From Chthoniobacteraceae bacterium (GTDB lineage: Bacteria; Verrucomicrobiota; Verrucomicrobiia; Chthoniobacterales; Chthoniobacteraceae): DNA of 64,000 nt. The stretch covers positions 12,254 to 76,253 of the forward strand of contig JBBCKI010000064.1 in the NCBI GenBank assembly GCA_037190965.1, in the 5' to 3' direction. Both the position numbers and the translations under genes were made by a program. Below, piece after piece: positions 20,051-52,716 of this stretch (positions within the stretch are counted from its first letter, which is position 1; each line of letters begins with the position of its first letter). The notes beneath the pieces were generated by a model. The model had not been told where the DNA came from, ran no database searches, and saw nothing but the letters and a program-made list of their open reading frames with translations.

Positions 20051-20219
20051 GTTCAACCTGAAAATCGAAGTTAATCGCGGCGATCTTGTGCAATTTCCTG
20101 GGCAGAAACGGTTTCGTCGAAATTCGCCGTATCGCTGCGGATACGGCTCATTTATCCTCAACCGTTTCTGCTACAGGCTCTTGCACAATCTCATCCGCTC
20201 CAACATCGGTTTTCGGGTT
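20051..20219 (-). ncRNA. Candidate structured ncRNA, rod-hairpin family, copy 1
   Basis: Nested inverted segments (e.g. GCAGAAACGGTT 20102-13 / AACCGTTTCTGC 20160-71); loop motifs and spacing shared with 37671-37839; strand inferred from copy 2. Confidence 0.65.
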
Positions 20220-23847: not shown

Positions 23848-23995
23848 GGTAGCCCGCTCGCGCCGTCGAGCGCGGGAGGTGATCATGTGGCGCGTTTGGC
23901 AGCTATCCCCGCAGCACGGCTGGTTCTGGTTGGGATGCGGCTTCAAAAGAGACACGGAAGCCGATACCCGCGCTCGGTGGCGCGAGCGGGCTACC
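23848..23995. repeat. GTAG-type REP-like inverted pair (family B)
   Basis: GGTAGCCCGCTCGCGCCGTCGAGCGCGGG at 23848-76 and a 27/29-identical reverse complement at 23967-95. Confidence 0.8.
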
Positions 23996-31923: not shown

Positions 31924-32133
31924 ATGCTAGTCCTATCACGCAAAGTGGGAGAAACGATCATGATCGGTGATAACATCGAGATCATGGTCACTCGGATTGA
32001 ACGAGATACCGTCCGTATCAGGATCAGTGCCCCCCGGGAGATCCCGATTTTTCGTGGAGAGCTTTATCGTGAGATCAAGCGAACCGCGGAAGAAGGTGCA
32101 GGCGCTCCGCCGCTCGACCTACCTGAGGCATAA
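31924..32133 (+). CDS. csrA: Carbon storage regulator CsrA
   Basis: '[20 protein letters not shown]...[19 protein letters not shown]'. Confidence 0.92.
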
Positions 32134-32407: not shown

Positions 32408-32439
32408 CCGACGGGGGCGGAGCTCCGCGACGCCGCCCT
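32408..32439. repeat. REP-like family A, single copy
   Basis: CCGACGGGGGCGGAGCTCCGCGACGCCGCCCT. Confidence 0.75.
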
Positions 32440-32461
32440 GTGGAGTTGGCTGACGAAGGTA

Positions 32462-37374: not shown

Positions 37375-37623
37375 TCAGAGCAGATCTTCCGAGGCGACGC
37401 TGGTTTGGGCGCGGGTGCTCAGGAGGCGGGCCTGTTCCACCACCGCGTCGGGATCTTCGTTGAACCGATAGCCGTGGCAATTCGGGCAGGTAACGACGCG
37501 GGCAGTCACGATGGAATCACACCCTTCGCAGACTTTGTATTCCGTCGGGCGGGTGATGATTTTTTCGGCTTTGCGGGCGCGTTCTGCAAGATGGCTCTCT
37601 TCCGGCATGTGCGTGAAAATCAT
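37375..37623 (-). CDS. Small zinc-ribbon protein
   Basis: CEGC...CPNC motif pair. Confidence 0.75.
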   Translation of the reverse strand: MIFTHMPEESHLAERARKAEKIITRPTEYKVCEGCDSIVTARVVTCPNCHGYRFNEDPDAVVEQARLLSTRAQTSVASEDLL

Positions 37624-37670
37624 CCGCCCTGATGCCGAATGCAAGGATTATCCCGATCTCGGAATTCGGG

Positions 37671-37839
37671 GTTTAACCCTAACTCCGACGTTAATCGCGG
37701 CGATCTGACGCAATTTGTTGGCCGCGAGTGCCTTTCGTCAGAGGCTCACCATATCTAAAAATACGCTTCGCCCTTCCTCAAGTCATCGCGACTCAACCTT
37801 TTGCGCCAGCTCATCCGCTCCAACATCGGAGTTAAGGTT
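37671..37839 (-). ncRNA. Candidate structured ncRNA, rod-hairpin family, copy 2
   Basis: Same length and loop motifs as 20051-20219; stems differ in sequence but still pair; A.C mismatches on + become G.U on -. Confidence 0.7.
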
Positions 37840-37971
37840 TAATCGGATCATTTGACTTGCCGCCCGGTTCGCGCTTAACTCCCCGCGCCGATAAGTTCCT
37901 CCGCCACCACTATTTCCGATGTCAACGATCCCAGTCGCCCGGTTTCACTTTCCAAGGGAGGCCCGCCCGTA

Positions 37972-38973
37972 ATGAGTCTCGCTTCTTCCAAAACCCAGGC
38001 CGAACTGGCCGCCTCGCAGCGTTTCGAAAAGACGGTCGCGCTGTTTACCGTGATCACGCCGTTCCTCGGGGTCATGGCCGCGATGGTGCTTCTTTACGGC
38101 GGCAATTACCTGCACGCCGTCGATCTTTGGGGTTTTTTCGCGATGTTCGTGTTCACCACCTACGGGCTGACAATGGGGTACCATCGGCTCTTCACGCACA
38201 AGAGCTTCCGCTGTGTCGCTCCCGTCAAGGCGGCCCTTTGCATCGGCGGGACGATGGCCGCGCAGGGTTCCGTCGTGTTCTGGGTGGCCCATCATCGCAA
38301 GCACCACATGCACAGCGATGAGATCGATGACCCCCATTCGCCGCATTTCGCGGGCGGCGGCCTCAAGGGGCTCTGCCTCGGCTGGTGGCATTCGCACCTT
38401 GGCTGGATGTTCGTCAACGAGCCGATCAACTACTTCCGCCTCGCCCCCGATCTTCTTCGCGACCCGCTGGTGATGCGGATTACCAAACGCTATTTCTTCT
38501 GGGTGATCGCCGGGATCGTTCTGCCGGGCATCGTCAGCGCGCTGGTCACGCAGTCCTGGATGGGATTGGTGACCGGGATGCTGTGGGGCGGGCTGGTGCG
38601 GATTTTCGTCGTGCACCACACCACCTGGAGCATCAACTCCATTTGCCACATGTTCGGCGCGTCTCCTTTCGACAGCAAAGACGAGAGCCGCAACAATGTT
38701 GCCTGCGCCCTGCTGACCTTCGGCGAGGGGTGGCATAATAATCACCACGCTTTCCCGACCTCCGCGCGCCACGGTCTCTTCTGGTGGCAGCTCGATATGG
38801 TCTACATCCTCATCAAGACGCTTTCGGCGATTGGGCTGGCGTCCGACATCCGGTTGCCTGATCCCAAGCAGATGGAAGCGCGGCGGCGTTCGGCGAAGGC
38901 TGTGTCCGCACAGGAGGATGCGTCCGAAGCGACGGAAGCCGCGGCCGTGGAAGGCGAGACAGTTTCGCCTTAA
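37972..38973 (+). CDS. Delta-9-type acyl-CoA/acyl-lipid desaturase
   Basis: His boxes HRLFTH, HRKHH, 'GEGWHNNHH'. Confidence 0.92.
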   Translation: MSLASSKTQAELAASQRFEKTVALFTVITPFLGVMAAMVLLYGGNYLHAVDLWGFFAMFVFTTYGLTMGYHRLFTHKSFRCVAPVKAALCIGGTMAAQGSVVFWVAHHRKHHMHSDEIDDPHSPHFAGGGLKGLCLGWWHSHLGWMFVNEPINYFRLAPDLLRDPLVMRITKRYFFWVIAGIVLPGIVSALVTQSWMGLVTGMLWGGLVRIFVVHHTTWSINSICHMFGASPFDSKDESRNNVACALLTFGEGWHNNHHAFPTSARHGLFWWQLDMVYILIKTLSAIGLASDIRLPDPKQMEARRRSAKAVSAQEDASEATEAAAVEGETVSP

Positions 38974-39001
38974 TGAAAACAAAATTGAGGGCCTTCGGCC
39001 G

Positions 39002-39106
39002 GGGCGGCGTCGTGTAACTCCGCCCTCCGAAGATCGCGCGGCAAGCGCGCAGGATGGGCGTTGGTAGGCAAATAACCCCAACGGAGGGCGGAGCTCCGCG
39101 ACGCCG
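39002..39106. repeat. REP-like family A inverted pair
   Basis: 39002-29 (degenerate) and 39082-106, between convergent genes. Confidence 0.8.
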
Positions 39107-39129
39107 TTGCATTCGGCGTCGATCCCAAC

Positions 39130-43629: not shown

Positions 43630-43705
43630 CTCGCGCCAAGGACGCCAAGCTCCCCAAGTCTTCAGAATCTTCCAACCTTGGCGGGCTTGGCGTTCTTGGC
43701 GCGAG
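43630..43705. repeat. Palindrome built from 9-nt 'NNNGCCAAG'-type repeats
   Basis: CTCGCGCCAAG GACGCCAAG CTCCCCAAG ... CTTGGCGGG CTTGGCGTT CTTGGCGCGAG. Confidence 0.8.
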
Positions 43706-45010: not shown

Positions 45011-47237
45011 AGTGCCACGCGCCGCGTGGCTGGTCGCCCTTGCGCACCGGATTGTGGCCGTAGTCGACGCGGATGGGGCCGATGGGGAGTTGATAGCGCA
45101 GGCCCGCGCCGACGGCGTACCCGGTTTCTCCGATGCCGTCGCTTACGGTCCGACCGACGCTCCCGGCGTCGAAGAAGACCGCGCCCTTGAGGTTGGCGTA
45201 AATCGGGAAGGTGTTTTCGATATTGAAGGTGGTGAAGGTCTGCCCGCCGATGGAGTGGCCAAACTTGTCCTTCGGCCCGAGGCTTCGCTCCACGTAGCTC
45301 CGCACGCTGCGGCTGCCGCCGTTGAAAAAGCGTTCGTCGATGGGAAGGCTGTGGTCGCCGTGCAACGGGAGAATGACGCCGCCCCGGAGGCCGACGGCGA
45401 GAAGCGTTTTGCCGATGGGAAGGTAATAGGAAACCCGGGCGGTGCTGCGGACGAAATCGACGGTGCTCCCCAAAGCGGCGAGCGCGAAGTCGCTGGTGGC
45501 GTTCATGACGAGCCCCTTGGTGGGGTTGAGGACGCTGTCCCGGAAGTCGAGCGTGGCCGAGGTGCCGAGGCTGTTGACGAGGTAGCGGGTGGGGCCAAGC
45601 TCGAGAGGATCAATCCCCCCGGTGTTGTCGATCTGCACCCCGCGCGTGAGAACGAACGCGGAGAGTTCCAGGTTCTTGCCGATCTTGCGGGATAACTCGG
45701 TATGAATTCCCGATTCGAGCTTGGAATAATCGTTAAGCTGCTGGCTCAGGAGGTACCCCCGGAACCGGAGGGTATAGTTGGTATCCAGCACCCACGGGTC
45801 GGTGTAGAGGAACTCGCCTCGAAGGAGGTTTTGCGCGATCTCCGCGTTGATGTTGAGCGGGCGGCCCATGCCAAAAAGATTCCGGTCAACGTATCGGGCA
45901 CCGAGGATGATCCCCTCGAGAGAACCGTAACCGAGGGAGAAACCGAGTTCCCGCGCCTTGGCTTCTTCGACCTCGAAGTCCAGCCGCACTTCGTGATTGG
46001 GGAGGGGAGTTTGGGTCAGCTTGAGGTTTGAGAAAAGCCCCGTGCTCATCAGCATCCGGTAGCGTTCCTCCACCTTTGCAGGATCGTACGGCTGGCCTTG
46101 CAGGCTCTTGAATCGTCTCTCCAGAAAGCCGGGCCGTAGTCGTTGCCTCGATTCGTCTTTGTATTTCTGGGTGACACCGTCGAACCGATAGAGATCGCCC
46201 GCATCGACGATGAACTTCACGGGCACGACTCCGTTGACGGCCCGCGATGGGTCGCTCTCCGAGCGGGCTTTCGCCATGAAGTAACCGCGCGATCGGTAGA
46301 AATAGACGATCTTTCTCTCCAGGTTGGTGACCGCCAGCGGCGTGTACGGCTTGGAGGTGAAGACCTCCAGTTCCTTGAGCAGAGTGCTGTGGGGGAAGAA
46401 GAGGATATCCCCCTCGAGCTCGATTTTGCCGAAGCGGTACTGCGTGCCTTCCTCAACGGTAATGACAAGATTGGCGCGGGTTTTGTCGGGGGAGAGGGTG
46501 ATGGCCGGTTCCTCAACCACCACATCGAGATACCCTTCCGAGCGGTAATATCCGCGTATCCGGTCCGTGCCGCTCCGGATGTTGCTCTCCACGAACGGAA
46601 TCACCGGCGGTTTTTCACCGGAAAAGCCGGTCAGAACTTTGAATAGCGTCCCGGAGGGAATGGCCCGGTTTCCTTGAAAGACGACTTTCCCCAAGGTCGT
46701 CAGCGGGCCTTCGTAAATGGTGAGAATGAGGAGATTCCCCCGGCCGATGGACCACTTTACCGAGGCCTGTGAATAGCCATTCTTTCGATAAAACACGCCG
46801 AGGAAAAACGCCGTGTCGTCGGCGAGCGCCGGGGAGAGCCCGGATTCTCCAATCTCGGAGAGTTGGTCGGCAATAGCGGCGCGGATCTGGTCTTCGCTGA
46901 AATGAGTGTTGCCCTGGAGTTGCAACCTGACCGGAGTGGTGGGCCGCCGCGCTGGCCGCTGGGGTAGTGGGGGCAGGGGTTCCAAGGCTTCCAGAGGCTC
47001 CTGTGGCGGCGCGGGAGGAAGTGCGGGAGGCGGAATTGGGTGCGGGGTGGGAAGCGGAGAAGGTGTGGGCGCGGGCTTGGGCGGTTTTGGGGGTTTCGCA
47101 GGAGCGACACCTCTCTGTTCCGGGCCGGCAGGGAGCGGCGGTTCCGGGAAGAAGCGTTGGGCGTGGAGCGGAAGGTTCAGCGCAAAGGTGAGGATAAGAA
47201 GAAGAGAAAAGAGTGGGCCTGCGGCCAAGGGCGGCAT
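44988..47237 (-). CDS. Omp85/BamA-TamA family outer membrane protein
   Basis: POTRA repeats, 'FFNGGSRSVRSY', 'GPIRVDYG', terminal 'FSFGFAF'; start chosen at the signal peptide and uncertain. Confidence 0.88.
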   Translation of the reverse strand: MPPLAAGPLFSLLLILTFALNLPLHAQRFFPEPPLPAGPEQRGVAPAKPPKPPKPAPTPSPLPTPHPIPPPALPPAPPQEPLEALEPLPPLPQRPARRPTTPVRLQLQGNTHFSEDQIRAAIADQLSEIGESGLSPALADDTAFFLGVFYRKNGYSQASVKWSIGRGNLLILTIYEGPLTTLGKVVFQGNRAIPSGTLFKVLTGFSGEKPPVIPFVESNIRSGTDRIRGYYRSEGYLDVVVEEPAITLSPDKTRANLVITVEEGTQYRFGKIELEGDILFFPHSTLLKELEVFTSKPYTPLAVTNLERKIVYFYRSRGYFMAKARSESDPSRAVNGVVPVKFIVDAGDLYRFDGVTQKYKDESRQRLRPGFLERRFKSLQGQPYDPAKVEERYRMLMSTGLFSNLKLTQTPLPNHEVRLDFEVEEAKARELGFSLGYGSLEGIILGARYVDRNLFGMGRPLNINAEIAQNLLRGEFLYTDPWVLDTNYTLRFRGYLLSQQLNDYSKLESGIHTELSRKIGKNLELSAFVLTRGVQIDNTGGIDPLELGPTRYLVNSLGTSATLDFRDSVLNPTKGLVMNATSDFALAALGSTVDFVRSTARVSYYLPIGKTLLAVGLRGGVILPLHGDHSLPIDERFFNGGSRSVRSYVERSLGPKDKFGHSIGGQTFTTFNIENTFPIYANLKGAVFFDAGSVGRTVSDGIGETGYAVGAGLRYQLPIGPIRVDYGHNPVRKGDQPRGAWHFSFGFAF

Positions 47238-47306
47238 CGCGGAGTTCCGCCCTCCGTCGGGGACGCTACCGCGCCAGTTTCGGAGGGCGGAGCTCTGCGA
47301 CGCCGC
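47229..47306. repeat. REP-like family A inverted pair
   Basis: 47229-60 and 47281-306, between tamB-like and tamA-like genes. Confidence 0.85.
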
Positions 47307-47349
47307 AACGCGTTGCTTAGGAGGCATGATGATAATCGTGTCAATCATG

Positions 47350-52560: not shown

Positions 52561-52570
52561 TTAGTCGGCA

Positions 52571-52676
52571 GAGGGCGGCGTCGCGGAGCTCCGCCCTCCG
52601 TCGATTTTCGCGACCAGCGCGCATGGAAAACTGGCGCGGCAGCGCCCTACCCCGGAGGCGGAGCTCCGCGACGCCG
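52571..52676. repeat. REP-like family A inverted pair
   Basis: 52571-603 and 52653-676, between convergent genes. Confidence 0.85.
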
Positions 52677-52716
52677 GTAACGCCGAAGGCGCTTGCCTCT
52701 GCCTTTCTCAGAGGCT

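Follow-up and report, generated by a model that had tools for sequence, protein, structure and literature searches.

The imperfect hairpin present twice in the window (the whole stretch of 64,000 nt analysed here) is almost certainly a MITE: it is short and non-coding, it carries terminal inverted repeats and a target duplication, and it is multi-copy, dispersed and patchy among relatives. According to our preferred reading, which we hold to be probable as a whole, this is a 161-bp MITE with IS1380-type ends, likely mobilised in trans; its fold, better on one strand, is likely important for single-stranded DNA at the replication fork and not for an RNA.

Structure of the two copies in the window

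Copy 2 forms a single rod (Table 1). All the stems that the initial annotation had named in it were recovered, namely CTGACGCAA (37705) with TTGCGCCAG (37801), GTTG (37717) with CAAC (37794), GCCGCGA (37721) with TCGCGAC (37786), TGCCTT (37729) with AAGTCA (37780), AGGC (37742) with GCCC (37770) and CATATC (37750) with AATACG (37760), and we counted in them exactly the seven A·C positions on the plus strand that had been read as G·U pairs on the minus strand, plus one C·T. The terminal stem at 37675-92/37822-39 was recovered as well, but the true ends of the element are 37677 and 37837, and the bases outside them (37672-76 and 37838-42) form a TTTAA duplication. Folding of both strands clearly favoured the minus strand, as had been proposed (-91.2 kcal/mol, z -8.5, against -58.9 kcal/mol, z -2.9, for the plus strand). 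Of the four apical G·A positions, three correspond to columns kept in 19, 19 and 19 of 21 subfamily representatives, the fourth column being partly misaligned.

Copy 1 is identical to copy 2 at 97 of 161 positions (ungapped) and folds nearly equally well on both strands (-86.8 vs -84.3 kcal/mol), with three G·T against four A·C mismatches, which bears out the earlier caveat that two mismatches in the terminal stem of this copy favour the opposite strand.

Table 1. Coordinates and strands of the MITE copies, their parts and the genes and promoter-like boxes next to copy 2, in positions of the window
Feature	Position	Strand	Description
MITE copy 1	20057..20217	minus	161 bp, other subfamily; duplication TTCAA/TTCAT at 20052-56 and 20218-22
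MITE copy 2	37677..37837	minus	161 bp, imperfect hairpin (rod) over the whole element; minus is the better-folding strand
Left 5-bp target-site duplication of copy 2	37672..37676	no strand	TTTAA on plus
Right 5-bp target-site duplication of copy 2	37838..37842	no strand	TTTAA on plus, identical to the left one
Terminal inverted repeat of copy 2	37677..37692	plus	14/16 identical to the inverted repeat of the IS1380 element
Terminal inverted repeat of copy 2	37822..37837	minus	13/16 identical to the inverted repeat of the IS1380 element
Apical part of copy 2	37735..37779	minus	one G-C pair flanked by two tandem G·A pairs (37775-79 vs 37735-39)
Apical part of copy 2, continued			further tandem G·A and loop at 37756-59
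77-aa protein gene (zinc-ribbon-like)	37375..37608	minus	two CxxC motifs; no Pfam or NCBIfam match
Fatty acid desaturase gene	37972..38973	plus	PF00487
Promoter-like boxes TTGCAT, 17 nt, GATTTT	37616..37644	minus	between MITE and zinc-ribbon-like gene; predicted from the sequence and motifs of relatives
Promoter-like boxes TTGACT, 17 nt, TTAACT	37852..37880	plus	putative, for the desaturase gene, facing away from the MITE

Copy number, target duplications and distribution of the family

The element had been taken for a two-copy repeat, a view that the genome containing the window (own genome) overturns, since it holds about 77 elements, merged copies and remnants taken together, 29 of them near full length. 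The elements span 160-162 bp with CC...GG ends, and no gene was called over 74 of the 77 own-genome elements by a rough, purpose-made gene caller. Among 58 distinct full copies, gathered from five genomes and metagenome loci, an exact 5-bp direct duplication flanks 34 (shuffles: mean 8.0, maximum 18), and an exact inverted 5-bp flank was found in 4. Duplication length was varied over the 41 own-genome elements for which both ends could be assigned, and a signal appeared at length 5 alone (15 of 41 exact against a shuffle mean of 1.6); this count is too low, as some ends are one base off.

A covariance-model search matched 13 of 151 genomes of the family, 10 strongly and 3 marginally (E about 2e-5 to 5e-5), with no strong match in the 5 same-genus genomes. 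A pattern scan of 185,579 species genomes added a single locus, where an IS end lies next to a piece of broken transposase, and a metagenome scan returned 27 loci, nearly all belonging to the hairpin MITE family; the plasmid collection searched gave no real match to the MITE or to the L082 fragment. An empty allele of either window locus was not found, and the contigs of three DNA runs held no joint skipping the whole element.

Several variants were observed. In the relative G122, five copies (L142-L146), each with its own exact 5-bp duplication, are of a 205-bp form in which one arm carries an insertion of 44 nt rich in purines and in GGA. A 66-bp form, shortened by an internal deletion with a short GCAAGA repeat at the joint, recurs at L088, L097, L102, L103, L105, L106 and L109, and most of these copies have intact 5-bp duplications; because its junction varies, repeated deletion in place fits this form, and we make no claim of independent transposition for it. 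A 20-bp remnant (G000:C35:10702-10721) consists of the two element tips alone, flanked by TTGAA/TTGAA. Elsewhere in the window, two intergenic long inverted repeats with 29-nt arms (23848-23995 and 43630-43705) are unrelated to the MITE family, and a CsrA homologue (31924-32133, PF02599) adjoins a sigma-54-type response regulator. The GGA motifs of the MITE lie mostly in paired or internal-loop positions, and no link to CsrA is claimed.

A probable IS1380 partner

The partner of the MITE is very probably an IS1380 element. G122, the genome with the most uniform MITE copies (more than 20 near-identical), carries a 1511-bp element with 16-bp inverted repeats, TTAAA/TTAAA flanks and a 477-aa ORF that scores 246.7 bits against the cut-off of 180 of the IS1380 equivalog NF033539. 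The MITE ends match the inverted repeat of this element at 13-14 of 16 positions in copy 2, 12-13 of 16 in copy 1 and 15 of 16 in a G122 copy; the TTAAA duplication is common to the G122 element and the MITE, and related IS1380 elements of the same transposase clade share CC(C/T)GAA..CCGAAGTT ends. IS1380 elements in general (NF033539, PF13701; e.g., IS1247, ISEcp1) resemble the MITE in having terminal inverted repeats of about 16 bp and a 5-bp duplication; for IS1247, an IR of 16/13 and a DR of 5 are listed in Table 2 of PMC3281130. Unlike them, the MITE has no transposase and its interior is an unrelated 130-bp rod, for which blastn found no match to the IS interior above chance.

The MITE was likely moved in trans by an IS1380-family transposase. 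Because a search with the G122 protein found no such transposase in the own 73-contig draft genome, mobilisation in trans is there only something that we infer; the same search found none in G011 and G035. The L082 fragment, without a match in a protein search, aligns to the G122 transposase over 29 residues. Other candidate partners were discarded: the DDE_Tnp_1 match L035 of the own genome has different termini, and on reading, the ends of the IS1380 matches L031 (G012) and L139 (G167) do not match. L035 (G000:C34:111785-115426) looks intact and is a DDE insertion sequence bounded by 15-bp inverted ends of its own, presumably of the IS1182 family.

One strand folds better across the family

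The better-folding strand is the same in 58 of 58 copies folded as RNA (mean -91.7 vs -73.8 kcal/mol for the weaker strand) and in 57 of 58 folded as DNA (mean -45.8 vs -38.5 kcal/mol), so the unequal folding energies foreseen for the two strands hold across homologues. In a strand-neutral self-alignment of the 58 copies, which are related and whose mismatch totals are therefore not independent events, G·A outnumbered C·T by 572 to 31 and G·T outnumbered A·C by 242 to 136. The asymmetry had been described as one of G·U wobbles; this part is upheld, but the dominant asymmetric mismatch is G·A, with G·T second. Counted as distinct founder states in six subfamilies, G·A has 16, G·T 11, A·C 4 and C·T 1.

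Between subfamilies the stems covary, with two-sided changes at 28 of 45 pairs against 5-13 in slid controls (no correction for relatedness), and the columns of tandem G·A stay as they are when those beside them change. Since one strand folds better family-wide and the stems covary, a single-stranded fold has shaped the element. The proposal of a functional single-stranded molecule read from the minus strand is thereby retained as far as the fold of one strand is concerned (58/58, with covarying stems), but it is not supported for a transcribed small RNA, given the transposon ends and target duplications.

Within subfamilies, derived changes produced 26 G·T and 18 A·C (p 0.29); substitutions affected 89 of 4422 paired sites (2.0%) vs 41 of 1632 unpaired sites (2.5%); these derived-change counts cover six subfamilies with 39 of the 58 copies, the two window copies being outside this set. 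Inserted copies decay near-neutrally, and the fold was kept in founders, not visibly after insertion. Deamination bias was rejected as the cause of the G·T excess, as by our reasoning the usual model predicts the G·T surplus for the G-rich strand, whereas the data have it on the other one; derived G>A and C>T changes showed no bias (23 vs 20).

Of the mismatches, G·T and G·A are the more stable ones also in DNA, so that the wobbles do not point to RNA in particular; the conserved tandem G·A pairs and the surplus of G·U in founders are as compatible with RNA as with DNA. Where internal sequence has been lost and both ends remain, the deletions are centred on the axis of the hairpin, with a median asymmetry of 10 nt where 28 would be expected (p 0.0002, from 28 gaps, several of them the same 66-bp form); this fits hairpin formation in single-stranded DNA.

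Orientation follows GC skew

In 66 of 76 own-genome elements (of the 77, one was left out for short flanks) and in 39 of 44 elements of four other genomes, it is the C-rich strand that carries the better fold. This polarity is already present in young copies, as seen in 20 of 22 elements of the young G122 set. A control repeat family splits 50:52 with respect to GC skew; it consists of REP-like inverted doublets, with 104 matches to its 24-base core in the own genome and occurrences in the window at 1027-1124, 32415-32440, 38992-39111, 47219-47310 and 52563-52696. When skew was computed at third codon positions from genes of both directions, the MITE count was 66 of 75 on the C-rich strand, and the bias appeared in all four gene contexts (30:3, 17:0, 9:1 and, weakest, 8:5 in the convergent one). 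In tandem contexts, called with the rough gene caller, the own genome had 9 sense vs 32 antisense elements and the other genomes 16 vs 15; an antisense bias to tandem genes was discarded, as the own-genome 32:9 is not repeated elsewhere (15:16). MITE orientation therefore follows GC skew, and does not consistently follow the neighbouring genes.

As a general rule, the G-rich strand is the leading strand. In the own genome, L2 and rpoB on the G-rich strand and a gene count of 1368:1221 agree with this rule, and the tRNAs (16:24) go against it. Assuming that G-rich is leading, the better-folding strand would be the leading-strand template.

Proposed mechanism and alternatives

We consider it probable that the fold acts at the DNA level near the replication fork. 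The MITE may have arisen as an inverted duplication of an IS end, with the transposase recognising the 16-bp ends. With the better-folding strand as leading-strand template, the strand exposed as lagging-strand template would be the one that folds more weakly as DNA. Two processes could then create the polarity, alone or together: insertion directed by the fork, and a rapid loss, by slippage across the hairpin, of copies lying the other way round. Pairing would be kept in founder lineages by selection at mobilisation or by template-switch correction, while inserted copies would decay near-neutrally.

The best-surviving alternative, which we regard as possible at less than even odds, is that orientation is set only by the transposase, through polar insertion via the beta clamp, and that the mismatch pattern came about by chance in a single ancestral palindrome, was inherited from it and was made uniform by template switching. 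Few founder events are involved, and in 20 of 28 related IS1380 elements the G-rich strand carries the transposase gene (p 0.036), the 28 taking in non-independent cases, repeated ones from three genomes, and a few with short flanks; one IS1380 peptide binds the beta clamp (PMC3971601). Against it, the MITE bias (105/120) exceeds the IS1380 bias (Fisher p 0.045), the two MITE ends look alike and so offer no obvious signal of polarity, G·A in one subfamily stands as A·G in another at several loop columns, and Table 1 of PMC3971601 gives no orientation bias for IS1380 in three phyla. This alternative overlaps with the insertion-or-loss step of our preferred, replication-fork explanation.

Somewhat less likely still is that this DDE-family MITE moves as a folded single strand, with the rod joining the ends, its purine-purine and G·T mismatches leaving only one strand competent and replication setting the orientation. 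Single-strand movement with replication-set orientation has precedents in attC sites and IS200/IS605 elements.

Selection of the fold as RNA, whereby the rod would alter mRNA processing or stability in read-through transcripts, appears improbable. The wide gap between the mean RNA energies of the two strands speaks for it, tandem G·A and G·U being typical RNA features, and ERIC and bcr1 offer precedents for an effect on mRNA processing or stability (review PMC3184786). However, the tandem contexts show no sense bias elsewhere and go against sense in the own genome, orientation tracks GC skew instead, and paired sites are unprotected in inserted copies.

Genes around copy 2

The remaining alternative, a trans-acting small RNA (6S-like or other) or a cis-leader of the zinc-ribbon-like and DUF4142 genes, concerns the loci themselves. 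The zinc-ribbon-like gene is present in 5 of 5 same-genus genomes with the MITE absent before it, its product being 72-94% identical there and the gene apparently near-leaderless; similar TTG...GATTTT motifs occur in the same 5 of 5 genomes lacking the MITE. In G005, both neighbour genes are kept without the MITE, the spacer being too diverged to align. The ATG at 37608 aligns with the gene start in the same-genus relatives; the distance of about 50 nt once given between hairpin and gene holds only from an upstream ATG (37623), and is 63-68 nt from the ATG at 37608. Both promoter-like box pairs lie below the threshold of a promoter scan, which returned no site. Copy 2 probably inserted, as a passenger, between two promoters standing back to back.

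A cis-regulatory leader had also been suggested; from the promoter-like boxes between MITE and gene and the relatives without the MITE, this role is unlikely, and the gene families downstream, whose consistency among homologues would have marked a cis element, vary, as does orientation, with all four gene contexts occurring. 6S RNA has a central bubble and a low copy number. A 6S-like RNA was discarded, as the MITE is an unbroken rod without a bubble, has too many copies and has no Rfam match (none at gathering in the window, one chance match at E 9.5). Thus, despite the strong, covarying minus-strand fold and the fact that both window copies point toward a downstream gene, a small RNA or leader is scarcely credible for dozens of copies with target duplications and IS ends.

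Relation to known systems and significance

Integron attC sites carry RYYYAAC/GTTRRRY boxes and stand in cassette arrays. They are like the MITE in being imperfect palindromes with a purine-rich better-folding strand, and the MITE was rejected as an attC site, its flanks (TTTAG/TTTAG, TTAAG/TTAAG) breaking the boxes and its copies being solitary. The MITE lies outside cassette arrays and has DDE-type ends, and unlike attC it shows direct 5-bp duplications with variable outer bases and no fixed R boxes. In sedentary chromosomal integrons, the better-folding (bottom) strand of attC lay on the template of the leading strand in 25 of 30 cases, according to PMC5371416.

Among bacterial MITEs, bcr1 of the Bacillus cereus group (about 155 bp) is likewise intergenic, with 5-bp direct repeats, patchy positions and compensatory changes that keep the fold, as the review PMC3184786 describes it; ERIC, RUP and Correia/NEMIS are grouped with it as near systems. 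The hairpin MITE differs from all of these in being a single unbranched rod, not a cruciform with two stem-loops, and in having an identified partner transposase family. Its strong skew-linked orientation also sets it apart from the IS1380 family, for which PMC3971601 reports none. A literature search, mostly without subscription papers and limited to titles and the starts of abstracts, returned no description of this MITE family or of a replication-oriented IS1380 MITE.

These results remove a false small-RNA candidate and show that G·U-rich covarying rods can be transposon derivatives; as a general trap, wobble asymmetry is no proof of RNA. On the positive side they add a MITE of IS1380 type whose matching transposase looks intact and whose orientation is biased to GC skew at 87%, in a parent family reported as unbiased. 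The transposition pathway of IS1380 is stated as unknown in PMC9330008; if true, folded-strand movement would be a single-stranded route for IS1380 transposases. The MITE lends itself, as a small substrate, to tests of the IS1380 transposition pathway and of the way in which palindromes are shaped by replication.
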